From NCBI GenBank assembly GCA_051715425.1, contig JBPXJS010000042.1, positions 17,805 through 81,804 of the forward strand: a stretch of DNA of 64,000 bases, given 5' to 3'. The notes under the pieces were generated by a model. It had not been told where the DNA came from, made no database searches, and saw only the letters and a program-made list of their open reading frames with translations. This DNA comes from Bacteroidota bacterium (GTDB lineage: Bacteria; Bacteroidota; Bacteroidia; UKL13-3). Below are positions 7,776 through 64,000 of this stretch, one piece after another (the first letter of the stretch is position 1; each line of letters begins with the position of its first letter). The translations under genes and the position numbers were made by a program.

Positions 7776-8233
7776 TCTATAAATATTTCTTTCTCGGCAG
7801 CCATTGTTTCATTGCCTGCTTTCCATTCAAAAGTTACTTTCCATGCACCTTTGGTCAGTTTATTGGTGGGGTAAGAAAAATGCCCTTCGTTATTAAGGGT
7901 AAACTCATCCTCAAAATCCAATGAAGAATCGGAGGGACGATAGAATTTTATTTTGCCTGAAATGTTTCCGCCAATGGCCGTGGTGAACGAAATACTTTGT
8001 TTAGAAGCAAGGTACTCAATATGGTGATCCATCCCTTCTGTTGCCATGTGTTTATCAATTTCCTTCTGATAATTCATGCCTTTTTCGTAGTAGTCTGTTT
8101 CAACCAATTCTACTTTTTGGCTAATCATAAAATAAACCATACTTACCACAAATATCATAAACAGTACGGTGAAAAAAACGAGCTTATGCCCCCAGTTTAT
8201 TTTCATATTATTATTTTTTGCTAAGGTAATCAT
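7772..8233 (-). CDS. FixH/CcoH family cbb3 oxidase assembly protein
   Basis: Single N-terminal TM followed by a periplasmic domain. It lies directly downstream of ccoG with an overlapping ATGA junction at 8233. Confidence 0.6.
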   Translation of the reverse strand: MITLAKNNNMKINWGHKLVFFTVLFMIFVVSMVYFMISQKVELVETDYYEKGMNYQKEIDKHMATEGMDHHIEYLASKQSISFTTAIGGNISGKIKFYRPSDSSLDFEDEFTLNNEGHFSYPTNKLTKGAWKVTFEWKAGNETMAAEKEIFIE

Positions 8234-9654
8234 CAGTTTGCTACCGGGCCAACAAAATTTGTTTTCATTTCTTCAAGCAATTTGCCATTGCTGTATATGC
8301 TTATTTTGGCAGGAATATTATTCTGCCTGATATTGGGTTTATCAATAAGAATAAAGAAAGAACCTTTAATAATTCCGTCCTCGGTAAGCAACATATCACT
8401 GCTCTCGCGGTCTACCATTTTTAAGGTGGCACCGGCAGGTTCGGTTAGTTTTACCTGAACATGCTGATCGGTAAAGGTTTTATTTACAATTTCGAAATTG
8501 TAGATATTACTTACCTGGTTGTTTTCCTGTTGCTGGTATAACATTCCCGGTGTACGCAGAATAGTGGTTTCAATATCTTTTCGCGTAACAATAAAGAAAG
8601 TAAGTAGTGACATGAGCAAGGTAAGCACAGTAAGATAGGCACCGCTTCTGAACGTTAAGCGCCTGCCAATTCCTTTTGCTATTTGCTCCTGAGAAGCGTA
8701 CCTGATTAAACCTTTAGGCTTATGAATTTTATCCATTACATCATCACACTCATCAATACAAGCCGTGCAGTTTACACATTCCAGCTGGGTTCCGTTGCGT
8801 ATATCAATTCCGGTTGGGCAAACCTGCACGCATCGGTGACAATCCACACAATCTCCCAGGTTTTGTTCAGCCCCTTTTTTTCTAAATCCCCTTGGCTCCC
8901 CGCGCACAAAATCGTAAGCCACCACAATGGAATTTTTATCGAGCATTAGCCCCTGCAAACGGCCATAAGGACAAATAACAATGCAGGCAATTTCCCTCAC
9001 TTTGGCAAATACAATATAAAATACAAATGAAAAAATAATGAGGGCTATAAACTGACCCATATGGGCTGAAGGTCCATCGGTTACCAGTTTTTTTACTTCA
9101 TCAATACCAATGAGGTAAGCCAAAAAGGTATTGGCAATGGCTACTGCTATAGCAAAAAAGATGGTATGCTTCAATCCTTTCTTTACTATTTTTTCTGTAT
9201 CCAATGGTTGATCATCCAGTTTTTTCTGTTGTTTAAAATCCCCTTCAATCAGGTATTCTATTTTACGAAACAACATTTCCATAAAAATGGTTTGAGGGCA
9301 TGCCCATCCGCACCAAACCCTTCCAAACATCACTGTGAATACAATAATAAATACCACAAAGGTGAGCATCAGCAATGCAAACAATGGTAAATCCTGTGGC
9401 CAGAATGGAATACCAAAGATGATAAACTTACGCTCCAGGATATTGAGAAGTAAGAGCGGGTGGCCATTGATTTTCATAAACGGACCACCAAACAACAAAA
9501 TCATTAATAAGATGCTGAACCATGTTCTGCCTTTGTATAAAGGCCCTTTTGGTTTTTTAGGATACACCCATTGTCTGTCACCGGTTTTTTTATTAACCAG
9601 TGATATCGTGTCTCTGTAAATCTCCCCATCCCCCGGTATCGCTTCGTTGCTCAT
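8233..9654 (-). CDS. ccoG: Cytochrome c oxidase accessory protein CcoG (polyferredoxin)
   Basis: Two 4Fe-4S cysteine clusters (CGWACPQ; CVDCHRCVQVCP ... CVNCTACIDEC) and TM helices. Conserved position after ccoP. Confidence 0.8.
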   Translation of the reverse strand: MSNEAIPGDGEIYRDTISLVNKKTGDRQWVYPKKPKGPLYKGRTWFSILLMILLFGGPFMKINGHPLLLLNILERKFIIFGIPFWPQDLPLFALLMLTFVVFIIVFTVMFGRVWCGWACPQTIFMEMLFRKIEYLIEGDFKQQKKLDDQPLDTEKIVKKGLKHTIFFAIAVAIANTFLAYLIGIDEVKKLVTDGPSAHMGQFIALIIFSFVFYIVFAKVREIACIVICPYGRLQGLMLDKNSIVVAYDFVRGEPRGFRKKGAEQNLGDCVDCHRCVQVCPTGIDIRNGTQLECVNCTACIDECDDVMDKIHKPKGLIRYASQEQIAKGIGRRLTFRSGAYLTVLTLLMSLLTFFIVTRKDIETTILRTPGMLYQQQENNQVSNIYNFEIVNKTFTDQHVQVKLTEPAGATLKMVDRESSDMLLTEDGIIKGSFFILIDKPNIRQNNIPAKISIYSNGKLLEEMKTNFVGPVAN

Positions 9655-9692
9655 AATCTTTAATTGAAATGTAACATATTCTTATAACGTAC

Positions 9693-9723
9693 AAAACCCC
9701 CTCAACTGGTGAAGGGGTTCTGT
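9693..9723 (-). terminator. Hairpin plus U-run between ccoP and ccoG (possible intra-operon attenuator)
   Basis: aacccc(c)tca-actgg-tga(a)ggggtt forms a GC stem of 6+3 bp, followed on the minus strand by TTTTGT. It is the only stable structure inside the otherwise contiguous cco gene string. Confidence 0.3.
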
Positions 9724-9736
9724 TTAAATGTTGTTG

Positions 9737-10615
9737 TTATTGTGCACTGGCAGTAGTATCGGTTGATGAGACGGTACTATCAGCAACAGCACCTTCTGGT
9801 GTATATTTATTGCCCTGAGGTTCTTTGCCTCCGGGAGGGTTGGTGCCCTGCATGGTTAGAATATAGCTGGCAAGTTCCTGCATTTCCAGGGCTTTAAGTG
9901 AATTACCCCATGCCACCATTCCTTTTGCCGGTACACCATATTTTATTGTTTTAAAAACAGATTTGATGTCGCCACCATGTATCCAGTATTCATCAGTAAG
10001 ATTAGGACCTACTTTGCCTTCTCCTTTTTCTCCATGGCATACGGCACATTTTTGGGTGTAAACAGTAGCTGCTGCTGCAAGTTTTGTTTTATCATCAATG
10101 GCTGTAACATTGGATTCATCAACAAGGTTACCCATTTTTTTCACATACTCTTCTTTTTGCTGCTCAGCCAATATCAGTTCGTTTTTATACTCCTGTGCCT
10201 GTAAAGGTGTTGATTCGAAAACATGGTAAAGCAAAAGGTATCCGAAAGCAAATACAATGGTACCGTAAAACAGCACGTTAAACCATGGTGGAATAGGGTT
10301 ATTCAATTCTCTGATTCCATCATAATCATGCCCAAGGTCAATATCCTTTTCGGCAGCAAGAGGTTTAAGGCTTAACATCTTTTCCCAGAAGCTGCGGTCT
10401 TCTTCGTAATGGTATTTCTCCCCAAGGGTTTCTTTTTTCAATACTGTTACTACCTGCTGAAGGGTAAATACAACAATCAGCATGACAAGTGCCAGGATAA
10501 TAATTAAAGTAATCAATACTTCAGAAAAAGACACTTTTGGCGATGATGCCGCTGTTTGAGCCATTAAAGGATGAGCTAAAAGCAGCATAAGTGCGGGAAC
10601 AATTATTTTTTTCAT
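9737..10615 (-). CDS. ccoP: cbb3-type cytochrome c oxidase subunit III (CcoP), c-type cytochrome
   Basis: N-terminal signal/anchor. The CcoP N-terminal-domain-like segment (PPWFNVLFYGTIVFAFGYLL) is followed by a CAVCHG heme-binding site. Confidence 0.7.
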   Translation of the reverse strand: MKKIIVPALMLLLAHPLMAQTAASSPKVSFSEVLITLIIILALVMLIVVFTLQQVVTVLKKETLGEKYHYEEDRSFWEKMLSLKPLAAEKDIDLGHDYDGIRELNNPIPPWFNVLFYGTIVFAFGYLLLYHVFESTPLQAQEYKNELILAEQQKEEYVKKMGNLVDESNVTAIDDKTKLAAAATVYTQKCAVCHGEKGEGKVGPNLTDEYWIHGGDIKSVFKTIKYGVPAKGMVAWGNSLKALEMQELASYILTMQGTNPPGGKEPQGNKYTPEGAVADSTVSSTDTTASAQ

Positions 10616-10627
10616 ATCGTCTGGTTA

Positions 10628-10798
10628 TTAATTGTTGTTGTCAGAATCTTCCAAAGGCATATTTTTCATCCTGTTGATGTAGTTCTTGTCTGCTCTGAAA
10701 ACCCACCATAAGAGGCCTACAAAGAAGAAGAAGAAGATCATCATGGAGAATATCAGGTAGTTCTCCATTCCTGTTACATTAGAAAGAAACTGTCTCAT
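10628..10798 (-). CDS. ccoQ: CcoQ/FixQ-like small membrane subunit (56 aa), not present in the ORF track
   Basis: My translation gives MRQFLSNVTGMENYLIFSMMIFFFFFVGLLWWVFRADKNYINRMKNMPLEDSDNNN, a single TM helix with an acidic tail. It lies exactly between ccoNO and ccoP, where ccoQ normally sits. Confidence 0.5.
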   Translation of the reverse strand: MRQFLSNVTGMENYLIFSMMIFFFFFVGLLWWVFRADKNYINRMKNMPLEDSDNNN

Positions 10799-10805
10799 AA
10801 TTTAA

Positions 10806-12938
10806 TTATTGGTTTGAGGCTGATTGTTGTTTTTTAATATCTGCACCAAGTCTCTGGAGGTATGCAATCATGGCCACCAGCTCTTTGTTGGCATCCAATG
10901 CAATACCATCTTTTTTCAAATTGGCACTTATCATTTCAGCCTGCAGCGCCAGGTTATTATTGGCATTTGTTATTTCATCATCGGTATAAGGCACACCAAG
11001 GCTTTTTAGTGCTTTCATTTTAGGCATAGTGCTTTCAGTGTTCAGACTCTGTTCGGCCAGCCATGGATATGGAGGCATTACCGAACCTGGTGACATGGTA
11101 CGTGGATCAATCATGTGATGATAGTGCCAGCTATCAGGATATTTTCCACCTATGCGGTGTAAATCTGGTCCGGTGCGCTTAGATCCCCAAAGGAAAGGAT
11201 GATCATACACATATTCTCCGGCCTTTGAATACTCACCCTGATAACGTTCTGTTTCACTCCGGAACGGACGAACCCATTGGGTATGGCATGCATTACATCC
11301 TTCACGTATATAAATATCGCGTCCCTGGAGCTCAAGAGGAGTGTATGGTTTTACACTGGAAATGGTAGGGATATTTGATTTAATAAGGAAGGTTGGAATT
11401 AACTCTACCGCACCACCAATAAGTATAGCTACAACTGCTAAAACGGTAAACATCACAGGTTTTTTCTCCAATACGGCATGCCAGAAATCGCCTTTTGCAA
11501 ACAGGGTCGATTTTTCAAGAGCAGGTGCTTCAGCGGCTTCATTGGCAGTAAACGAGCCTTGTTTCATTGTTTTTACAATATTGTAAATGAGGATAAGGAA
11601 ACCGGCAAGGTATAGGGTACCACCTACTGAGCGTAAAATATGCAATGGCAATATCTGAATGGTTATTTTTAAGAACTCAGGATATTGTAAAGTACCCTCA
11701 GGAGTGAATTCTTTCCACATTAAACCTTGGGTAAAACCTGACCAGTACATTGGAATGGCATAAAATACAATTCCTAAAGTAGCCAGCCAGAAATGGATAT
11801 TGATTAATTTTTTGGAATAGATGGTTGTATTATACATTCTTGGAATCATCCAGTATAATATAGCAAACGTAAGCAGCCCGTTCCATCCTAAAGCACCAAC
11901 GTGCACGTGAGCCACAATCCAATCGGTAAAGTGGGCAATGGCATTTACATTTTTTAATGACAGCATTGGTCCTTCAAAAGTGGCCATACCGTATGCAGTA
12001 ATACCAACGGCAAACATTTTCAGTACAGGCTCATCGCGAACCTTATCCCATGCACCACGGAGTGTTAGCAAACCATTGATCATACCACCCCATGATGGAG
12101 CAATAAGCATAATGGAAAATACCACCCCAAGTGATTGTGCCCAATCAGGGAGGGATGAATATAATAAGTGGTGAGGACCTGCCCAGATATAAATAAATAT
12201 AAGTGACCAGAAGTGAAGGATAGAAAGTTTATAAGAGTAAACAGGGCGTCCGGCTGCTTTAGGAAGGAAATAATACATCATTCCTAAAAACGGAGTGGTA
12301 AGGAAAAAGGCAACGGCATTGTGACCATACCACCATTGCACCAGTGCATCCTGAACACCTGCGTATACCATGTAACTTTTGAACATACTTACCGGAAGTT
12401 CAATAGAGTTTACAATATGCAAAACGGCAACTGTAACAAATGTGGCGATATAGAACCAAAGGGCTACATACATCTGTTTTTCCCTTCTTTTAATAATGGT
12501 TCCGATCATGTTTACACCAAATGCTACCCAAACCAATGCGATAGCAATGTCAATTGGCCATTCCAGCTCAGCATATTCTTTGGAGGTGGAAAGCCCCAAA
12601 GGCAGGGTGATGGCTGCACTCAGAATAATGAGCTGCCAGCCCCAAAAATGCAGGTTGCTCAGAAAATCGCTGAACATTCTGGCTTTGCATAAACGTTGCA
12701 GGGAGTAATAAACCCCGGCAAAAATGGCATTACCAACAAAAGCAAAAATAATGGCGTTGGTGTGTAAAGGCCTTAAACGACCAAATGAAGTGAATTGAAG
12801 GCCGAGGTTTGCTGCGGGCAGATACAACTGCACTGCAATAAGCAATCCAACGAGCATCCCTATTACCCCAAATATCATGGTGGCAATAGAGAAATTGCGG
12901 ACGATTCTGTTGTCGTAGTTAAACTTTTCGATTTGCAT
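10806..12938 (-). CDS. ccoNO: Fused cbb3-type cytochrome c oxidase subunits I+II (CcoN-CcoO fusion)
   Basis: 710 aa. The N-terminal 12-TM heme-copper oxidase core (His-rich helices; HFWLATLG, HHLLYS) is followed by a C-terminal monoheme domain CNACHTQWVRP typical of CcoO. Confidence 0.85.
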   Translation of the reverse strand: MQIEKFNYDNRIVRNFSIATMIFGVIGMLVGLLIAVQLYLPAANLGLQFTSFGRLRPLHTNAIIFAFVGNAIFAGVYYSLQRLCKARMFSDFLSNLHFWGWQLIILSAAITLPLGLSTSKEYAELEWPIDIAIALVWVAFGVNMIGTIIKRREKQMYVALWFYIATFVTVAVLHIVNSIELPVSMFKSYMVYAGVQDALVQWWYGHNAVAFFLTTPFLGMMYYFLPKAAGRPVYSYKLSILHFWSLIFIYIWAGPHHLLYSSLPDWAQSLGVVFSIMLIAPSWGGMINGLLTLRGAWDKVRDEPVLKMFAVGITAYGMATFEGPMLSLKNVNAIAHFTDWIVAHVHVGALGWNGLLTFAILYWMIPRMYNTTIYSKKLINIHFWLATLGIVFYAIPMYWSGFTQGLMWKEFTPEGTLQYPEFLKITIQILPLHILRSVGGTLYLAGFLILIYNIVKTMKQGSFTANEAAEAPALEKSTLFAKGDFWHAVLEKKPVMFTVLAVVAILIGGAVELIPTFLIKSNIPTISSVKPYTPLELQGRDIYIREGCNACHTQWVRPFRSETERYQGEYSKAGEYVYDHPFLWGSKRTGPDLHRIGGKYPDSWHYHHMIDPRTMSPGSVMPPYPWLAEQSLNTESTMPKMKALKSLGVPYTDDEITNANNNLALQAEMISANLKKDGIALDANKELVAMIAYLQRLGADIKKQQSASNQ

Positions 12939-13026
12939 AGGTATTCCGGTTATGTGTGATTAATGAAACAAAACTATTTACTGGTGAATGACGATAATAT
13001 GACAATGGTTAGGTTGATTCATGATC

Positions 13027-13209
13027 TTAATCATGTTTCTCAGTTTCCTCTTTTTTGGCAGCAGGTGCCGGGTAATTATCAAACAGGATCCTTACCGATG
13101 GGGTATAGTCATCATCCATCTGACCGGATCTTACGGTCCAGATAAAAGCAGCAAGAAATCCTATGGCAAGCAACAGGCTGCAACCTATTAATACATACAT
13201 TACACTCAT
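13027..13209 (-). CDS. ccoS: cbb3 oxidase maturation protein CcoS
   Basis: 60 aa, with one TM helix (MSVMYVLIGCSLLLAIGFLAAFIW) and an acidic tail. Its stop overlaps the ccoI start. Confidence 0.65.
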   Translation of the reverse strand: MSVMYVLIGCSLLLAIGFLAAFIWTVRSGQMDDDYTPSVRILFDNYPAPAAKKEETEKHD

Positions 13210-15626
13210 TTAAGTCCTCCTTTTTTAGCAAATATTGATGTTGTTATGGTGGTAAATCCAATCACCGTAATGGAGCTTAATGGCATCAGTACGGCAGCTA
13301 TAAGCGGAGAGAGAGTACCCTGAACGGCATAACTCAATCCCACTATATTATACATTAATGAAATAATAAAACTGCAATGAATAACGGTAAGGGTATTTTT
13401 ACTGAAACGGATAAAACGATCAAGCTGAGAAAATACAGCAGCATCCATAATCACATCAGCAGCAGGTGAAAAATGGGAGGTATCTTCGCTAACCGAAATA
13501 CCTACATCTGCCGCCTTCAGCGCTCCGGCATCATTTAGTCCGTCACCAATCATCATCACGTTTTTATTTTGGCCATGCAGCTTTTCTATAAAGCGCATTT
13601 TATCCTCTGGTGATTGCCTGAAATACAATTCCTCCTCATCACCAAATAAATGCCCAAGCCTGCTTTTTTCATTTTCGTTATCACCGGAAAGCAAATACAT
13701 CGCGTATTTTTTTCTGAATCCTGAAATAAGTTCTTTTAATCCTTGCCTGTAGGTGTGTCGTATGTTAAAATATCCTATTTCCTTGTTATCTATCTTGATA
13801 AATACCCTTGTAGCCAATTCAGCCGAAGGGATAAAAGGAGCAGGGGTTTCCGGAAAAAGAAAGGAATAAGAGCCAACCATAATATGGTGCCCTTCTGTTT
13901 TGCCTTCCAGTCCTTTTCCGCTGATTTCAAAAAAATCTGTAGCGGCTGCTACATTTATTTCATTAAACAATGACCTGATTTTTTTACTCAAGGGATGCAC
14001 GGAATTTTTTACAACAGATACCACCCATCTTTTTTCCTGTTCTGATAATTGATTTCCCTGCCAGGTAATCACCGATTCTGAAGGTTGCGTGATGGTGCCG
14101 GTTTTATCAAAAGCTATTGCACTGATGCGGGCAATATGTTCGACCGTTTCAGGAGATTTTACGTAAAAGCGGTATTTCCCTAAAATACGCATTGCCGTGC
14201 CAAGTGCAAACGGACTGGATAAGGCAAGTGCGCATGGGCAGGCTATGATGAGCACGGAGGTAAATGCGTTGAGTGATAATGATGGATCAAAAATGAGCCA
14301 CCAGCCTGCTGAACCAAATGCAGTGAGCAATAAGCCAATGGTAAAATACTTACTTACTTTTTGCTGAAAAGTTTGAATGCGGCTTTTATGTTCTTTTGAG
14401 AAATATTCGTTATTCCACAATTGGGTGAGGTAACTTTGCGAAACCTTTTTACATACCTCCAGTTCAATGGTGCTGCCGGCCTGTTTTCCTCCGGCATAAA
14501 TCATTTCTCCCAATACCTTATCAACAGGATTTGATTCTCCGGTAACGAAACTAAAATCGATATGTGCATTGCCTTTTAGCAGGATAGAATCGGCCGGTAT
14601 CAGTTCATTGTTACGTATAATGATGCGGTCGCCAATTTGGAGGTTGGTAACAGGTACTGTTGTTTCATTCCCGTCTTTTATTACACTAACCGCAACCGGG
14701 AAATAAGATTTATAATCCCGTTCGAAGGAAAGGGTGTCATACGTTTTTTGTTGAAACCATTTACCAATTAGCAGAAAAAATACCAGGCCTGCATGTGTAT
14801 CAAAATAACCTATACCGGTTTCGGAAATAACCTCATAACTGCTTCTTGCAAATAATACCAGAATACCCAGCGCAAGGGGCACATCAATGGAAATGAAATT
14901 TTTTCTGAGGCCTTTATAAGCATTGATAAAATAATCTCTTGCACTAAATAAGAATACAGGAACAGAAAGGAACATATTGAGGTAGCCGAATAATCTGGAG
15001 AAGGTTGCTTTGGTTAGGCTGTCCAGCCCGAAGTATTCCGGAAAACTGATGAGCATGATATTGCCAAAACAGAATCCCGCTACGCCAATCTGATATAAAA
15101 TTTTTCGACTTTCGTCTTTTTTTATAGTCGTTTCAATATCGTTGAGGTGAATGGCGGGTTCGTAACCAAGTGATGTAAGCAGTTCAACAATATGGCGAAG
15201 GGAGGTCTCCTGATGAATAAAGGTGACTGATAAACTTTTTTTCAAAAAATTAACACGGGAAGAAGAGACAGCAGGATTAAGTTTGTAGAGATTTTCGAGC
15301 AGCCAGATACAGGAACTGCAATGCATGGTGGGAATATGAAACTGTACCTTCATGATCCGCTCATCTTTAAAAGAGATGAGTTTAGCTATCACCGCTTCAT
15401 CATCGAGGTAGTTAAATTTATGTCCGGATACGGGAAAACGTTGCGTAATGCCAGGAGTGTTCTCCATATCGTAATACGCACAGAGGTTGTTTTGGGAGAG
15501 TAATTCGTAAACATTTTTACATCCAAAGCAGCAGAATTGATGCGATTCAAATTCAAGGATATCATCCTTGCATTCGTCTCCGCAATGGTAGCATGTTGTT
15601 TTTGATGTGGTAAGCGTTTCTGACAT
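13206..15626 (-). CDS. ccoI: Copper-translocating P1B-type ATPase CcoI
   Basis: N-terminal CYHCGDEC metal-binding region, the CPC transmembrane motif (IIACPCALALS), DKTGTIT phosphorylation site, and GDGLNDAGAL hinge. Confidence 0.8.
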   Translation of the reverse strand: MSETLTTSKTTCYHCGDECKDDILEFESHQFCCFGCKNVYELLSQNNLCAYYDMENTPGITQRFPVSGHKFNYLDDEAVIAKLISFKDERIMKVQFHIPTMHCSSCIWLLENLYKLNPAVSSSRVNFLKKSLSVTFIHQETSLRHIVELLTSLGYEPAIHLNDIETTIKKDESRKILYQIGVAGFCFGNIMLISFPEYFGLDSLTKATFSRLFGYLNMFLSVPVFLFSARDYFINAYKGLRKNFISIDVPLALGILVLFARSSYEVISETGIGYFDTHAGLVFFLLIGKWFQQKTYDTLSFERDYKSYFPVAVSVIKDGNETTVPVTNLQIGDRIIIRNNELIPADSILLKGNAHIDFSFVTGESNPVDKVLGEMIYAGGKQAGSTIELEVCKKVSQSYLTQLWNNEYFSKEHKSRIQTFQQKVSKYFTIGLLLTAFGSAGWWLIFDPSLSLNAFTSVLIIACPCALALSSPFALGTAMRILGKYRFYVKSPETVEHIARISAIAFDKTGTITQPSESVITWQGNQLSEQEKRWVVSVVKNSVHPLSKKIRSLFNEINVAAATDFFEISGKGLEGKTEGHHIMVGSYSFLFPETPAPFIPSAELATRVFIKIDNKEIGYFNIRHTYRQGLKELISGFRKKYAMYLLSGDNENEKSRLGHLFGDEEELYFRQSPEDKMRFIEKLHGQNKNVMMIGDGLNDAGALKAADVGISVSEDTSHFSPAADVIMDAAVFSQLDRFIRFSKNTLTVIHCSFIISLMYNIVGLSYAVQGTLSPLIAAVLMPLSSITVIGFTTITTSIFAKKGGLK

Positions 15627-60570: not shown

Positions 60571-60578
60571 TATTTTTG
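60571..60578 (+). promoter_or_regulatory. Bacteroidota-type -7 promoter box (TAnnTTTG) upstream of the riboswitch
   Basis: tatttttg matches the consensus and lies 15-20 nt upstream of the first conserved riboswitch helix. Confidence 0.25.
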
Positions 60579-60589
60579 CCTCAGTTAAT

Positions 60590-60795
60590 TGGTTCCTTCA
60601 TTCAATTTATTGAACAAAGGGATTAAAAGGGAATCAGGTGTAACTCCTGAACAGTTCCCGCTGCTGTAAGCTTCATTCGGGTTAAACCGAAAACTTCAGC
60701 TCCATTCTTTGTCACTGTACAACCATTGGTGTATGGGAAGACCGGAGCATAAGGAAGCAAGTCAGAAGACCTGCCATTAACAAACAATCATGTAG
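60590..60795 (+). promoter_or_regulatory. Cobalamin (B12) riboswitch
   Basis: Conserved core aagggaatcaggtgtaactcctgaacagttcccgctgctgtaagc (AGGGAA..GGTG.AA.TCC...CCCGC..CTGTAA), a B12-box-like gtcactg, and gggaagaccgg. It lies immediately upstream of the TonB-dependent receptor gene. Confidence 0.75.
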
Positions 60796-60888
60796 CTTTC
60801 GGGACAAAAAGCAAGATGATAAAATGCTGACCCTGTTTTTAGTCAACTTTTATCGCCAATCTTTCCCATAGCTATAACTTTTTTTCGT

Positions 60889-62781
60889 ATGCAAAGAGTT
60901 ATAAGTTATGTATGTTTATTGTTTGTATTTGTGTCTGCCAGGGCACAGGTATCCGATACTGCTGTTTGGATAAAGGAAGTAAACATAAAATCAAGCAGGT
61001 TTGATGTTTTTAATGCCGGTGTAAAAGTTACCGGGGTCGATTCCATCACACGTCTCACTTCCATACATGCAAATATTTCTGATTTGCTCTCCCTGTCAAC
61101 TCCGGTTTTTATAAAAACGTATGGCCCCGGCAATATTGCCACTCCTTCATTTCGTGGCACAAATAGCGAACACACGGCTGTTTTGTGGAAAGGGTTTAAT
61201 CTTCAAAACAGCATGATGGGTCTTGCCGATTTTTCTTTAATGCCCGTTGATTTTTTTGATCAGATAAAAGTGGAGCATGGGGGCAACGGTGCATTGTTTG
61301 GCAGCGGGGCTATTGGAGGTGCTGTAAGGTTAAATTCACTTCCGCAATATAACTCTGGCTGGCATGCCGGAGTTATGTTTACAGCAGCCAGTTTTGAAAA
61401 CTTCAGGGAAGCTTTTTTTCTTTCATACGGAGGTAAAGTATGGTACAATTCCTTTAAGGTGTATAAAAATGATGGGTTAAATAATTTCCCGTTTAAAAAT
61501 ACCTCATTACCCGATTATCCGCAACAACAGCAACAACATGCTAAAGTAAATATGCTTGGGTTGATGCATGAAAGTTACCTCCGGTTAAACAGGTATAATG
61601 AGGTGAATATGGCTGTATGGTATCAGGATGGTAAAAGGGATTTGCCTCCTACCATGTCTGCATCAGGTAGTATTGCAAAACAAACCGACAGGGCGTTGCG
61701 TTTTACCGGAGAATGGAAAAGGGGAAAGGGAATTTTTTCTACCTCATTGCGAAGCGGCTGGTTTGATGAGTTGCTGATTTATGAAGATGCTGTTACATCC
61801 ATTTATTCAGAAAGCAATATACATACCGCAATAGCAGAATTTGAGGTTACCATTAAAGCAGGCCAGCAACATAAATTGCTGGCAGGTTTTGGTAATACAT
61901 GGTCTCAGGGGTATCATGAATCTTACAACGGATGGAAAAGCTTAAACAGGTTTGCCCTGTTTACCTCATGGAAATACCAGAATAAAAAAAACAACCTGTT
62001 CACAACAGTAAGCCTCAGGCAGGAGTTCCCGGATAAACGCTCCGCACCGCTTATTCCATTTGCCGGTGCTGAATACAAGGTAAATAGTTGGTTTCGGTTA
62101 ACAGGAAATATTTCAGCAGCCTATCGTTTCCCTACCCTTAATGAAAGGTATTTTTCTCCTGGTGGAAATCCGGAGTTAAATCCGGAGTATGGCTGGGGTG
62201 AAGAGCTTTCAATGGTTTTTGCAAAAGGATTGAACGGGCATCATGTGTCGGTTCAACTTACGGGCTACAATCGCATTACAGATAACTGGATTGTGTGGGT
62301 GTCTGCCGGTTCTTACCCCTCCCCGCGAAACCTGAGAAAGGTACAATCTTCAGGGATGGAATCTTTGATAAGATACACAGCAACTGTCGGGCAACTATCC
62401 TTTCTTCTTCAATCAACAGCGACATTGTTGGAAACCACCAATCTTCGTTCCGCGTTAAGCAATGATGAATCCGTGGGAAAACAATTGATTTATATTCCGC
62501 GGCTTTCTCATCAGCACCTGTTCAGGATAAATCATAAAAGTTGGTTTGTTCAATATCAACAACAATACAACGGACTGCGGTTTACTTCAACGGATAATTC
62601 TTCCTGGTTAAATGATTACACCATTGGCAATTTGGGAGCAGGTTTTGGCTTTACGAGAAAGAAAATAAAATACGCCATCACTCTTCAGTGTTTTAATCTC
62701 TGGAATCAGACCTATGTGGTGCTGCCGGAGCGTCCAATGCCTGGAAGAAATTACACGCTTACACTATCAATTAAAATATAA
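60889..62781 (+). CDS. btuB: TonB-dependent outer-membrane receptor (BtuB-like cobalamin transporter)
   Basis: Signal peptide and a plug domain with a TonB-box-like N-terminus. The 22-strand barrel ends in an aromatic terminus (LTLSIKI). The gene sits under cobalamin riboswitch control. Confidence 0.7.
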   Translation: MQRVISYVCLLFVFVSARAQVSDTAVWIKEVNIKSSRFDVFNAGVKVTGVDSITRLTSIHANISDLLSLSTPVFIKTYGPGNIATPSFRGTNSEHTAVLWKGFNLQNSMMGLADFSLMPVDFFDQIKVEHGGNGALFGSGAIGGAVRLNSLPQYNSGWHAGVMFTAASFENFREAFFLSYGGKVWYNSFKVYKNDGLNNFPFKNTSLPDYPQQQQQHAKVNMLGLMHESYLRLNRYNEVNMAVWYQDGKRDLPPTMSASGSIAKQTDRALRFTGEWKRGKGIFSTSLRSGWFDELLIYEDAVTSIYSESNIHTAIAEFEVTIKAGQQHKLLAGFGNTWSQGYHESYNGWKSLNRFALFTSWKYQNKKNNLFTTVSLRQEFPDKRSAPLIPFAGAEYKVNSWFRLTGNISAAYRFPTLNERYFSPGGNPELNPEYGWGEELSMVFAKGLNGHHVSVQLTGYNRITDNWIVWVSAGSYPSPRNLRKVQSSGMESLIRYTATVGQLSFLLQSTATLLETTNLRSALSNDESVGKQLIYIPRLSHQHLFRINHKSWFVQYQQQYNGLRFTSTDNSSWLNDYTIGNLGAGFGFTRKKIKYAITLQCFNLWNQTYVVLPERPMPGRNYTLTLSIKI

Positions 62782-62785
62782 AATA

Positions 62786-64000
62786 ATGAAAAAACTATTT
62801 ACTCTTTTTGTACTCTGCCTCGCACTGCAATCAACCAATGCGCAACGGGTATCCCATTTTGAAAATATTTCTCTGAGCTCCGGATCTTATAAGAACGGAT
62901 CAGGGAAACCGGTAACCGGTAAGTTTTTAAGTGGCAATATTGAATTGCCAAATACTTACCAAAGTCAGTTTGGTTTCTGGAGTGCTGGCTGGGCTTACTC
63001 AAATATTAAAAACGACACCACAGCAGGGTTCAATAATTTATACGCATCGTACGCTGCAGAAGGAAATAACGCATCATCCAATTATGCAATCGGGCAGGGT
63101 GGGAGTATACTCCGTGTAAACAACGCAGGTTCCGGAGATACCGTTATGGGAGTTTATTTAACCAATGGTACTTACCCTGCTTTAAGTATGAAAAACGGAG
63201 ATGCATTTGCCAAAAAATTTGGAGGTACCAGCGGAAACGATTCTGATTATTTTCTTGTTACCATTAAAGCATGGCATAATGGTTTGTTAAAGAATGACAG
63301 TGTTAATTTTTATCTGGCCGATTTTCGGTTTGCAAACAATGCTCAGGATTATATTCAAAAAAGCTGGGCCTGGGTTAATTTATATCCACTTGGTAAGGTT
63401 GATTCACTACAGTTTTTATTGCGTTCTTCCGACAACGGACAGTTTGGGATGAATACACCTTCCTTCTTTTGTTTAGATGATCTGATCACAAAGTCTGATA
63501 CTGCCGATTTTGAAAATCTCAATCTGGGTACAGGTAAATTCTGGAACAAAAGCAATGCTACCTTAATCGAAATGTATCAAAGCGGGTTGGCTACATTTCC
63601 ATCATCATTTGCGGTGTCTTCCTTTGGCGATTATTGGAACGGTGGTTTTGCCATAAGCAGTGTTATGGATACAGTTAGTGCAGGTTATGGAAACTTGTAT
63701 GCAGCTTACTCCGGAATAGGGGTGGATTCCTCATCGAATTATGCTGTGGTGCAACAACGCTCCAAAGTAATGGTTGGATCTGCATTGCCGGAAAAACCTG
63801 TGTTGGCAGGTGTTTATGTAACCAATACCACCTATGCAGCTTTAAGTATGAAAAACGGAGATGCATTTGCAAAAAAGTTTGGAGGTGCAACCGGCAATGA
63901 TTCAGATTATTTTATTCTTACAGCCAAAGCTTACCTGAATGGAACGGTTAAATCAGATTCGGTTAATTTTTATCTGGCTGATTACAGGTTTGCCGATAAC
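62786..64000 (+). CDS. Partial CDS (runs off window end): secreted protein with at least two tandem ~220-aa repeats, DUF4465-like B12-locus accessory protein
   Basis: My translation from the ATG at 62786 gives MKKLFTLFVLCLALQSTNAQ... with no stop before 64000. The two repeats share GVYLTN.TY.ALSMKNGDAFAKKFGG..GNDSDYF ... DSVNFYLAD.RFA.N and a 30-nt stretch that looks identical (around 63182-63211 and 63841-63870). Confidence 0.5.
   Translation, partial: MKKLFTLFVLCLALQSTNAQRVSHFENISLSSGSYKNGSGKPVTGKFLSGNIELPNTYQSQFGFWSAGWAYSNIKNDTTAGFNNLYASYAAEGNNASSNYAIGQGGSILRVNNAGSGDTVMGVYLTNGTYPALSMKNGDAFAKKFGGTSGNDSDYFLVTIKAWHNGLLKNDSVNFYLADFRFANNAQDYIQKSWAWVNLYPLGKVDSLQFLLRSSDNGQFGMNTPSFFCLDDLITKSDTADFENLNLGTGKFWNKSNATLIEMYQSGLATFPSSFAVSSFGDYWNGGFAISSVMDTVSAGYGNLYAAYSGIGVDSSSNYAVVQQRSKVMVGSALPEKPVLAGVYVTNTTYAALSMKNGDAFAKKFGGATGNDSDYFILTAKAYLNGTVKSDSVNFYLADYRFADN

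Follow-up and report, generated by a model that had tools for sequence, protein, structure and literature searches.

A probable cobalamin-repressed B12 acquisition operon of an uncultured Bacteroidota encodes a tandem BtuJ-type protein with a T9SS sorting domain

The DUF4465/BtuJ proteins form a B12-binding jellyroll family, as established by crystallography and biochemistry (PMC13398666, PMC13616437). They bind B12 with nM to pM affinity, and in vitro they hand it over to both BtuG and BtuH (PMC13398666, PMC13616437, 10.1101/2025.07.01.662609). BtuJ1 (BT1491; 9FCT/9QPM) and BtuJ2 (BT1957; 9I2L) of Bacteroides thetaiotaomicron are SPII lipoproteins with a lipoprotein export signal and one domain per protein, and they are encoded in cobalamin-riboswitch-controlled loci beside btuB and btuG. 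A tyrosine of the HI loop (NTPAY) has been called critical and was reported to be retained in 97% of DUF4465 proteins. B12 binding has also been demonstrated for D5EK51 of Coraliomargarita akajimensis (9HMU) and other DUF4465 proteins (PMC13398666), which shows that even highly divergent DUF4465 domains bind B12.

The window analyzed here is a stretch of 64,000 nucleotides from a Bacteroidota contig (JBPXJS010000042.1), and the region of interest lies at its 3ʹ end (Table 1). This region is probably the 5ʹ half of an operon for B12 (cobamide) acquisition under cobalamin repression, from an uncultured freshwater-type Bacteroidota, for which a capture mechanism is proposed below. An earlier note on this DNA had read the riboswitch, the BtuB-like receptor and the tandem-repeat DUF4465 protein as a B12 capture locus; the families were confirmed, and DUF4465 has meanwhile been shown to bind B12 (PMC13398666, PMC13616437). 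The tandem protein shares with BtuJ1 and BtuJ2 the PF14717 family, the augmented beta-jellyroll fold and the riboswitch-controlled setting, at an identity of only ~28%. Two features set it apart from the characterized BtuJ proteins, namely predicted T9SS export in place of a lipoprotein anchor, and substitution of the HI-loop Tyr by Phe in both domains. This tandem variant is widespread among environmental Bacteroidota.

Table 1. Features of the locus, in window coordinates
Feature	Position	Strand	Basis or remark
Candidate Bacteroidota -7 promoter box TATTTTTG (TAnnTTTG)	60571-60578	+	position conserved in orthologous leaders
Cobalamin riboswitch aptamer (RF00174)	60572-60792	+	cmscan 95.7 bits, E 1.4e-22, model 1-189 of 189
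L5 loop UUCCCG	60655-60660	+	inside riboswitch aptamer
B12 box AGUCAGAAGACCUGCC	60760-60775	+	inside riboswitch aptamer
Hairpin GCUUU-CGGGACAA-AAAGC, candidate P13/L13 kissing-loop partner of L5	60795-60812	+	conserved directly 3ʹ of aptamer
BtuB-type TonB-dependent transporter, 630 aa	60889-62781	+	Pfam domains, closest solved relatives
Signal peptide (MKKLFTLFVLCLALQSTNA, then Q), SPI type, N-terminal Gln after cleavage	62786-62845	+	translation
DUF4465/BtuJ-type domain 1, aa 21-236	62846-63493	+	PF14717 stretch 61-233
Domain 1 DE-loop motif TNGTYPALSMKNGDAFAKKFGG	63161-63226	+	
Domain 1 HI-loop NTPSFF	63452-63469	+	
DUF4465/BtuJ-type domain 2, aa 237-405 of 237-456 (cut by window end)	63494-64000	+	PF14717 stretch 280-453 in P0001
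Domain 2 DE-loop motif	63821-63886	+	
T9SS CTD, aa 473-543 of P0001	past window end		Por_Secre_tail + TIGR04183

The leader contains a full-length cobalamin riboswitch, which scored far above the RF00174 gathering score of 31.5 bits and was the sole Rfam match within the window. The conserved core and the B12-box variant seen in the earlier note were thus both located, and its distance of about 90 nt to the receptor is 96 nt from the aptamer end to the ATG. A riboswitch preceded the cassette in each of the 15 related loci examined (16/16 counting the present one), and the tandem DUF4465 gene was the first gene after it in 6 of those 15. The TAnnTTTG box was present as claimed and recurred, as TATTTTTG, TAATTTTG or TACTTTTG, at an unchanged position in five orthologous leaders, though the motif by itself was not enriched over chance in the window (61 matches against 85 +/- 9 expected). 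The TATTTTTG box would be part of the promoter.

The hairpin directly 3ʹ of the aptamer was unchanged in five close orthologues and lay at an equal offset in 15/16 leaders. Its stems covaried among leaders (GCUUU/AAAGC, CACUUU/AAAGUG, CAACUU/AAGUUG), while the loop CGGG was constant and complementary to CCCG of L5; the hairpin was also present in the MFE fold of the leader. From established knowledge of cobalamin riboswitches, we take it to be the kissing-loop partner of L5. Transcription from the promoter would yield a leader with a classical cobalamin riboswitch, in which the hairpin loop could kiss the aptamer. When intracellular cobalamin is plentiful, the riboswitch would shut the operon down, presumably at the level of transcription or translation; no convincing intrinsic terminator was found on the + strand. 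Under B12 scarcity, the BtuB-type outer-membrane transporter, the tandem BtuJ-type protein and further downstream components would be made.

The receptor carries a signal peptide cleaved between ARA and QVSD, and it matched the Pfam domains Plug (45.6 bits) and TonB_dep_Rec_b-barrel (67.3 bits). Among solved structures, it is closest to BtuB1/2/3 of B. thetaiotaomicron (8p98_A, E 7.5e-63; 8p97_A; 8bmx_C), in agreement with the earlier btuB-like assignment. Compared with the BtuB-BtuG complexes of that species (8BMX, 8P97/8P98, 8BLW), the receptor was most similar to the BtuB chains (E 7.5e-63 to 4.6e-17), and it is shorter than them (630 vs 690-713 aa). The best NCBIfam match was TonB-B12, far under the equivalog cut-off (76 vs 600 bits), with the NCBIfam BtuB equivalog models aligning to the receptor only across the plug region. 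The window contains no btuFCD genes.

The tandem DUF4465 gene begins with an ATG 4 nt past the receptor stop, and the window end cuts it after 405 codons, both as previously stated. A database protein of 543 aa (P0001) is 100% identical, its residues 1-405 being exactly the window translation. Its Sec signal peptide is followed by exactly two DUF4465 domains and then by a C-terminal sorting domain (CTD) of T9SS type A. The suspected DUF4465 membership and the suggested two or more repeats of ~220 aa were thereby settled: PF14717 matched twice both in the window protein (E 3.3e-71) and in full-length P0001 (E 3.7e-94). The PDB sequence matches were B12-bound DUF4465 structures, namely 9hmu, 9fct/9qpm (BtuJ1) and 9i2l (BtuJ2), with 9hmu_A matching domain 1 at E 5.9e-20 (phmmer). 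In the AF2 model (pLDDT 89.8; above 90 across most of domain 1), residues 1-18 were unstructured and a disordered linker (461-467) lay between the domains and the CTD. The nine top Foldseek matches were all DUF4465/BtuJ chains, led by 9hmu, 9qpm, 4jqr and 9fct. D5EK51 was thus the best match in both PDB sequence (30% identity) and Foldseek searches; it differs in being a single-domain protein of Verrucomicrobiota, without T9SS, that keeps the HI-loop Tyr (PSY).

The two repeats resemble each other at the DNA level, being 79% identical over 134 nt at a spacing of 660 nt (220 codons). The near-identical stretch of ~30 nt noted earlier is an exact run of 32 nt (63179-63210 = 63839-63870), whose translation, ALSMKNGDAFA, is the pocket motif with the highest conservation. 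An exact match of this length is improbable from codon usage alone (P ~7.5e-5 for that segment), which favors the recent internal duplication proposed in the earlier note. The remaining evidence contradicts this proposal. The repeats are only 52% identical in protein, and their synonymous sites are near saturation, identical residues using the same codon only ~52% of the time (six orthologues), close to the codon-usage expectation. In 218/230 cases, the nearest neighbor of a repeat was its positional counterpart in the protein of another species. The two-domain architecture is common to the listed full-length homologues down to ~41% identity and occurs in more than 50 species-level genomes from several to many Bacteroidota orders, and synonymous changes break the 32-nt run in the relatives at 91-92% identity. 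Nor does the repeat look like an assembly artefact, as the window matches an independent Logan assembly that includes the start of the gene. The duplication is old, and a recent origin or an artefact is extremely improbable.

Both repeats retain the same 29 core positions at a conservation of at least 90%, among them those of the DE-loop Tyr region, of GD.F.KKF and of the HI-loop T-P, and the DE-loop Tyr and HI-loop N-T-P are likewise conserved in BtuJ1 and BtuJ2. Each domain probably binds a corrinoid, and because both keep the conserved core, multivalent capture is plausible. It is unlikely, though worth considering, that one domain alone binds the ligand while its partner serves either as a structural spacer or to dock the BtuH-like protein, BtuG or BtuB. 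Such a division of labor would fit the positions conserved in one repeat but not in the other (30 in R1, 13 in R2), which lie mostly in the N-terminal half shaping one side of the pocket, as well as the lower mean between-species identity of R2 (0.516, vs 0.561 for R1). However, the DE-loop Tyr is kept in both repeats (101/115 proteins in R1, 115/115 in R2), GD.F.KKF and the T-P of N-T-P are retained in all or nearly all of the 115 proteins, and neither domain shows pseudo-domain decay. Single-domain CTD versions also occur in the same cassette, and one domain therefore suffices for the basic job.

The HI-loop Tyr that contacts B12 (Y245 in BtuJ1) was kept in 5/5 solved sequences aligned, whereas Phe replaces it in both domains here (F227 in NTPSFF, F447 in NTPGFF) and in ~90% of the tandem clade. 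Because of this replacement, affinity or ligand preference may differ. The ligand of these domains might even differ from complete cobalamin, being for instance cobinamide, another incomplete corrinoid or a different tetrapyrrole; BtuJ1 is known to bind cobinamide as well (10.1101/2025.07.01.662609). We consider this quite improbable, given the cobalamin riboswitch at 16/16 loci and the neighboring BtuB, BtuG and BtuH-type genes; moreover, Phe preserves the aromatic packing. The free exchange between Phe and Tyr across the clade suggests a Tyr hydroxyl that is not needed rather than a switch in specificity.

The tail of P0001 matched Por_Secre_tail (PF18962; residues 473-541, 42.7 bits) and TIGR04183 (50.5 bits), both above cut-offs, and its fold matched the mirolase CTD 8qb1 (Foldseek). 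The same C-terminal beta-sandwich of 70 aa is found in T9SS type-A cargo such as gingipain RgpB, mirolase and F. johnsoniae NucA/RemA, which also share the N-terminal Gln after signal-peptide cleavage. A19 and Q20 of the signal peptide were nearly invariant among 60 homologues. A true lipobox was found in 0/84 related proteins, the three regex matches still ending in an A/G-Q signal-peptidase I site. The protein is a DUF4465 member, as suspected in the earlier note, but with its SPI signal and type-A CTD it is no Bacteroides-like surface lipoprotein. Other CTD cargo proteins are encoded in the same window. The tandem protein would thus pass the inner membrane by Sec and the outer membrane by T9SS, and would capture corrinoids, one pocket per domain, either tethered to the surface or released. 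Known type-A cargo consists mainly of hydrolases, adhesins and motility proteins, and no report of a vitamin-capture T9SS cargo was found in the literature searched.

One tentative possibility, which we consider rather doubtful, is that the protein is freed into the medium as a diffusible bivalent "cobalaminophore", similar to a haemophore, and returns loaded to the BtuH-like/BtuG/BtuB machinery of the same operon. In Bacteroidota other than Porphyromonas, many cargos with a type-A CTD are secreted as soluble proteins, which counts for release, as do the CTD itself and the disordered linker before it. Vesicle-borne BtuJ of B. thetaiotaomicron also acts at a distance (PMC13616437). However, the PorU sortase can equally attach type-A cargo covalently to anionic LPS, the sequence does not discriminate between the two fates, and a binder released into open fresh water would easily be lost.

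The window and the single matching Logan contig both stop inside the DUF4465 gene, and the downstream genes are read from relatives. L002 (92% amino acid identity), L087 (93%) and L003 (72%) all continue with X328-CTD, DUF5074 and DUF5522. By analogy with the B. thetaiotaomicron relay, captured B12 might pass from BtuJ, possibly through BtuH, to BtuG, BtuB and the periplasm. The further components of this operon, encoded directly past the window end in all close relatives, would be a BtuH-fold T9SS cargo, a BtuG-type beta-propeller surface lipoprotein capping BtuB, and a DUF5522 protein. X328-CTD has a T9SS tail, and its predicted fold corresponds to the B12-binding domain of BtuH. This match is one of fold and not of sequence: profile searching of the PDB sequences found the CTD alone, and Foldseek did not recover BtuH. 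Compared with BtuH2 (BT1956, 7BIZ) and the BtuGH fusion BtuG1 (8BLW chain B), X328-CTD has no detectable sequence similarity, lacks the N-terminal Ig/PKD domains and carries a T9SS CTD in place of the lipid anchor, and its gene lies outside the window. Natural DUF4465-X328 fusions exist. The DUF5522 protein is small and Cys-rich. The DUF5074 lipoprotein of the relatives, with a lipobox followed by an acidic export signal (LSSC, then DDKE), matched BtuG chains of the BtuB-BtuG complexes (E 9e-54); in contrast to B. thetaiotaomicron, two T9SS cargo genes lie between btuB and the btuG-type gene, or the genes are arranged J-H-B-G.

The end of the window carries a riboswitch-controlled B12 capture operon, in which a BtuB-type receptor is followed by a two-domain BtuJ-type binder. 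B12 is scarce and most bacteria are unable to make it, and competition for it shapes microbial communities; the host of this operon would be expected to be a B12 auxotroph. The cobalamin riboswitch core recognized in an earlier note was recovered by the Rfam scan over the full length of model RF00174, which was the sole Rfam match in the whole window at gathering thresholds. The receptor ORF begins ninety-six bases downstream of the aptamer, in agreement with the distance of about 90 nt proposed for the riboswitch core and B12 box. When related loci were scanned with Rfam, RF00174 lay ahead of the cassette's leading gene in 15 of 15, and in 6 of those 15 this gene was the tandem DUF4465 gene itself.

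Coordinates of the features in the window, in the full-length database protein P0001 (residues) and in related loci from other genomes (L-numbers); a slash within a sequence marks the predicted cleavage site
Feature	Position	Strand	Details
cbb3-type cytochrome oxidase cluster	8233-15626	-	
Predicted T9SS type-A cargo, 2,238 aa	25411-32127	+	BNR_assoc_N domain and C-terminal sorting domain (CTD)
Predicted T9SS type-A cargo, 439 aa	43560-44879	+	CTD match only
Lipoprotein-like ORF, 173 aa	57783-58304	-	..FFASC/DKKDSDD; long Thr/Ser linker TTTTTTSTTSTTSTTST
TAnnTTTG box	60571-60578	+	same position in five orthologous leaders
Cobalamin riboswitch aptamer RF00174	60572-60792	+	95.7 bits (gathering score 31.5), E 1.4e-22, model 1-189 of 189
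L5 loop UUCCCG	60655-60660	+	complementary to the CGGG loop of the hairpin
B12 box AGUCAGAAGACCUGCC	60760-60775	+	inside the aptamer
Hairpin GCUUU-CGGGACAA-AAAGC	60795-60812	+	directly 3ʹ of the aptamer
TonB-dependent transporter, 630 codons	60889-62781	+	PF07715 (Plug) 45.6 bits, PF00593 (barrel) 67.3 bits, above cut-offs
Tandem DUF4465 gene	62786 to window end	+	405 codons, cut; ATG four bases after receptor stop
P0001 signal peptide, SPI	residues 1-20		...TNA/Q
P0001 DUF4465 domain 1 (R1)	residues 21-236		
P0001 DUF4465 domain 2 (R2)	residues 237-456		
P0001 T9SS type-A CTD	residues 473-543		beyond window end; TIGR04183 50.5 bits (cut-off 23), PF18962 42.7 (27)
X328, 326-328 aa	downstream in L002, L087, L003		T9SS CTD
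DUF5074 lipoprotein, 344-345 aa	downstream in L002, L087, L003		lipobox then acidic residues, LSSC/DDKE
DUF5522 protein, 60-63 aa	L002 10206-10394; L087 3755-3946; L004 13658-13840		start overlaps BtuG-type stop
DUF4465-X328 fusions in one polypeptide	L019 5992-8268; L034 5003-8218; L074 143-1807		also database protein P0233

The hairpin directly 3ʹ of the aptamer did not vary in close relatives and recurred at an unchanged offset in 15 of 16 leaders; its stem covaried, and its CGGG loop was constant. Cobalamin riboswitches form an L5-L13 kissing loop, which this hairpin and the complementary loops resemble, and we infer that the CGGG loop pairs with UUCCCG of L5 in this way. The TAnnTTTG box, previously taken as a -7 element, is present and conserved in position, but the motif alone is not significant, as it occurs 61 times in the window, below the approximately 85 expected by chance. 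The sigma-70/terminator scan of the leader yielded only minus-strand sites at chance level and no plus-strand intrinsic terminator, so a simple intrinsic-terminator expression platform was not supported and was dropped. In the minimum free energy fold, the leader and first codons form a hairpin with the receptor start codon in its loop, for which conservation was not found. Ligand-dependent repression, by either transcriptional or translational control, is predicted.

The proposal of a TonB-dependent, btuB-like receptor was borne out by the Plug and barrel domains and by the PDB sequence matches. All 10 matches at E ≤ 1e-5 were BtuB transporters or receptors, led by three Bacteroides BtuB paralogues (8P98_A at 7.5e-63, 8P97_A, 8BMX_C, and 8BLW_A) and followed by E. 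coli BtuB; from the B. thetaiotaomicron BtuB-BtuG complexes, it was the BtuB chains that matched. The top NCBIfam model was a TonB-dependent B12 receptor, yet the score was well under the equivalog cut-off (TIGR01779, 76.3 vs 599.7 bits; NF007926, 47.6 vs 836), the best matched stretch covering the plug region only in both models. Because the BtuB structures lead but the equivalog cut-off was missed, the receptor is classed by homology and context as a putative Bacteroidota-type BtuB, not as an NCBIfam equivalog. The context comprises the riboswitch directly upstream and, in all close relatives, a gene of BtuG type within the operon, which suggests that the operon of this genome also has a BtuG-type gene and that the window ends before it.

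DUF4465 membership of the next gene product, previously raised as a possibility, was confirmed by two PF14717 matches in the partial protein (239.7 bits, E 3.3e-71, cut-off 25), and the gene start 4 nt after the receptor stop and its truncation by the window end were as described. A search of a 5.8-billion-protein collection returned the full-length version, P0001 (543 aa), whose residues 1-405 are 100% identical to the window translation and which scored 314.5 bits against the same cut-off of 25 in two stretches. The AlphaFold2 (AF2) model of P0001, built with 60 homologues, had a mean pLDDT of 89.8 and consisted of two beta-rich domains and a C-terminal beta-sandwich, with a disordered linker at residues 461-467. 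In the Foldseek comparison with the PDB, the nine best matches all belonged to the DUF4465/BtuJ family (target TM-scores 0.52-0.74), including 9HMU, 9QPM/9FCT (BtuJ1), 4JQR, 4E9K, and 9I2L (BtuJ2), and the C-terminal tail matched the T9SS CTD of mirolase (8QB1).

More than 70% of the DUF4465 family are lipoproteins and the remainder carry periplasmic signals (PMC13398666; 10.1101/2025.07.01.662609; PMC13616437). Whereas BtuJ1 and BtuJ2 of B. thetaiotaomicron are surface lipoproteins with a signal peptidase II lipobox and a lipoprotein export signal, the tandem protein has a signal peptidase I site (A/Q) and a T9SS CTD and lacks a lipobox. P0001 is thus predicted to be type IX secretion cargo and not a lipoprotein. 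The idea of a surface B12-binding accessory following btuB therefore stands as to the B12-binding BtuJ family, but the protein has a T9SS tail and no lipoprotein signal. A19 and Q20 were nearly invariant in 60 homologues. A mature N-terminal Gln is a hallmark of Bacteroidota and is associated with pyroglutamate formation; the signal peptides of the receptor, the tandem protein, and X328 (L002 8178), the T9SS-tailed protein encoded after the DUF4465 gene in relatives, all end in A/Q. None of the scanned ORFs of the window was identified as a T9SS core gene, and the two other CTD-bearing proteins encoded in the window suggest that the genome has a T9SS.

In the DNA, the two domains appear as direct repeats exactly 660 nt apart that are 79% identical over 134 nt, in line with the repeat unit of about 220 aa noted before; where at least two repeats had been counted, the domain layout of P0001 gives exactly two, not more. 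An exact 32-nt run (63179-63210 = 63839-63870) likewise corresponds to the near-identical stretch of about 30 nt from which a recent internal duplication had been concluded. Codon usage by itself would produce a run of this kind with a probability of about 7.5e-5. However, recent duplication, like an assembly artefact, is ruled out by the divergence of the repeats. R1 and R2 of P0001 share 52% of their residues. When 115 full-length homologues were split into 230 repeats, a repeat was closest to the repeat at its own position in another protein in 218 of 230 cases, and the between-species mean identity was 0.56 for R1-R1, 0.52 for R2-R2, and 0.45 for R1-R2. At residues identical in R1 and R2, the same codon was used in about 52% of cases in six orthologues, near the codon-usage expectation. 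The same-position clustering, cross-species identities, and codon mismatch argue for a duplication older than the spread of the clade through several orders. The 32-nt run encodes ALSMKNGDAFA, which lies within the motif TN.TY.ALSMKNGDAFAKKFGG; this motif holds the B12-contacting Tyr of the DE loop and is the most conserved stretch in both repeats. In relatives of 91-92% identity the run is broken by synonymous changes (AGT/AGT in the window, AGC/AGC in L087, and AGT/AGC in L002). The run is no evidence of recent duplication. At the synonymous sites of ALSMKNGDAFA, R1 and R2 tend to match within a genome and to differ between genomes, hinting that short-tract gene conversion may occasionally occur between the repeats.

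DUF4465 proteins make up the BtuJ family, whose augmented beta-jellyroll takes up B12 in a pocket formed by loops. Crystal structures with bound B12 have been solved for BtuJ1, BtuJ2, and D5EK51, and B12 binding was also shown for six additional, divergent members (PMC13398666). B. thetaiotaomicron BtuJ1, a surface lipoprotein, is required for growth at limiting B12 and loads BtuG2 and BtuH2 in vitro (10.1101/2025.07.01.662609; review PMC13616437). The Tyr of the DE-loop helix is present in both domains of P0001 (Y130 in R1 and Y350 in R2, aligned with Y146 of BtuJ1); across the clade (n = 115), this position was Tyr in 101 and Phe in 14 R1 repeats, and Tyr in all 115 R2 repeats. The HI-loop motif NTPAY contains a Tyr (Y245 of BtuJ1) that contacts B12, is called critical, and is kept in 97% of homologues (PMC13398666). 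In P0001, N-T-P is kept in both domains and this Tyr is replaced by Phe (NTPSFF, 223-228; NTPGFF, 443-448), in contrast to the solved DUF4465 sequences, which have Tyr in 5 of 5 aligned. Phe occupies this position in 104/115 R1 and 100/115 R2 repeats and Tyr in the others; as the two residues swap freely across the clade, the hydroxyl seems to be dispensable here. The missing Tyr is nevertheless the main reason for caution on affinity or ligand preference. Neither repeat looks degenerate by conservation among the 115 homologues: 29 positions were at least 90% conserved with the same residue in R1 and R2, and none was conserved in both with different residues. Repeat-specific conserved positions (30 in R1 and 13 in R2) lay mostly in the N-terminal half, the part that makes up the variable WX/YA side of the pocket in BtuJ crystal structures (PMC13398666). 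Both domains are predicted to bind cobalamin or cobinamide. The published test proteins include one from Bacteroidota, 'Fluta' of Fluviicola, which may or may not belong to the tandem/T9SS clade.

One Logan contig carries the receptor, and like the window it stops within the DUF4465 gene, at an earlier point. The downstream genes were therefore read from L002 (92% protein identity), L087 (91% DNA identity), and L003 (72%); an exact 60-nt search of GTDB representative genomes gave no match, and an exact look-up of P0001 returned no recorded contig. L002 has the same upstream gene order as the window, and all three loci continue identically with X328, a DUF5074 lipoprotein, and a DUF5522 protein. 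The DUF5074 protein matched the BtuG chains of BtuB-BtuG complexes at E 9e-54. The X328 family is very large (8,000 of 8,000 scored candidates at E ≤ 0.001), and its members, where sources name them, are called 'T9SS type A sorting domain-containing protein' or similar. The N-terminal 250 aa of X328 matched nothing in Pfam or among PDB sequences, also when searched as a profile, and BtuH1/BtuH2 (7biz and 8blw) were absent at E ≤ 10 when phmmer and a 58-sequence profile were run against PDB sequences. The AF2 model of X328 reached a pLDDT of 91.2, and its predicted fold, likened to BtuH, makes X328 a candidate BtuH-fold T9SS cargo. Natural DUF4465-X328 fusions, one of them a 1,071-aa protein without CTD from a Lentisphaerales MAG, support a functional link between the two proteins. 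The DUF5522 gene, which looks translationally coupled to the BtuG-type gene because its start overlaps the stop of the latter, was found in the close relatives L002, L003, L004, L006, and L087 and in 7 of 80 surveyed loci. Its product carries GFCCKSGCKHCPYG, a Cys-rich motif, and lacks a signal peptide; a protein of such cytoplasmic appearance is unusual in an operon for surface capture.

A pattern scan with one genome per GTDB species found relatives of the tandem protein at at least 585 loci, the best 80 of which were annotated with local HMMs. These contained 53 tandem and 31 single-domain DUF4465 proteins, a count that includes four reference loci, and all except those of L034 and L047 carried a CTD. 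They were usually accompanied by a receptor of BtuB type (B), X328 (H), and a gene of BtuG type (G), arranged as B-J-H-G or J-H-B-G, where J is the DUF4465 gene. Unlike the window, with B-J-(H-G), eight loci (L016, L017, L018, L021, L023, L028, L031, and L035) had the order J-H-B-G with the tandem DUF4465 gene first, and in the six of them scanned with Rfam (L016, L018, L021, L023, L028, and L031) the riboswitch lay directly before it. The source MAGs were labelled Saprospiraceae, Chitinophagales, Flavobacteriales, Crocinitomicaceae, Cytophagales, Prolixibacteraceae, Lentimicrobiaceae, and environmental Bacteroidales, and a Lentisphaerales MAG had a CTD-less version. Further, an exhaustive HMMER search with repeat 1 against 1.84 billion representatives (50% identity clusters) found 2,893 DUF4465 clusters, 837 of them at E ≤ 1e-30. 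In the best 150 of these, a ranking biased toward multi-repeat proteins, there were one (42), two (87), three (19), four (1), or five (1) matched stretches. Giant proteins of 1,500-3,000 aa with 3-5 DUF4465 domains (P0247, P0249-P0261, and P0301) included planctomycete ones; P0247 has five such domains, a planctomycete extracellular signal, and a dockerin, and P0301 (3,053 aa, T9SS cargo) combines MAM, CUB, BNR_assoc_N, and DUF4465 domains with a DUF5074 BtuG-type propeller.

The BtuJ-BtuH-BtuG-BtuB surface relay is known in detail only from gut Bacteroides, and there all the accessories are lipoproteins. What looks like the same parts list is found here in uncultured, apparently largely freshwater or environmental Bacteroidota, but with the BtuJ module doubled in one polypeptide and with T9SS sorting domains on both BtuJ and its candidate BtuH-fold partner. 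The published DUF4465/BtuJ surveys consulted mention neither tandem domains nor T9SS, and full-text literature searches on T9SS or type IX secretion with cobalamin or B12 gave no linking paper. No account of the T9SS-tailed tandem version was found in the literature searched, yet it is built wholly from recognizable parts. If confirmed, it would extend the functions known for the T9SS to vitamin capture and would offer natural two-site B12 binders, with Phe variants of the 'critical' Tyr, for the study of tight binding and hand-off. A more far-reaching proposition, which taken as a whole we consider improbable, is that in environmental Bacteroidota the extracellular relay for B12 known from gut Bacteroides has been rebuilt around the T9SS, a two-pocket BtuJ and a BtuH-fold protein being exported as cargo. 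BtuJ might then leave the cell as a diffusible bivalent 'cobalaminophore', and its domains, which are unlike each other in the N-terminal half that shapes the pocket and do not have the canonical Tyr of the HI loop, might have diverged for different corrinoids (complete cobamides vs cobinamide, or different lower ligands) or, alternatively, might hand the ligand from one to the other. If this long shot were true, vitamin scavenging would be a previously unrecognized T9SS function.

The annotation of the locus is otherwise ordinary, as every part of it within the window was recognized by standard Rfam/Pfam models; outside the operon, one Pfam scan of ORFs was used. Minus-strand ORFs of 62-89 aa within 60571-64000 were treated as spurious because they are short and nested in large plus-strand genes. 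The 173-aa lipoprotein-like ORF had no precomputed Pfam match and is conserved in L001-L003 beside a 462-aa protein that is likewise without a confident Pfam match. The cbb3 cluster encodes a fused CcoN-CcoO (COX1 and FixO, 710 aa), a FixG-like ferredoxin (473 aa), and a CcoI-like P-type ATPase (806 aa).
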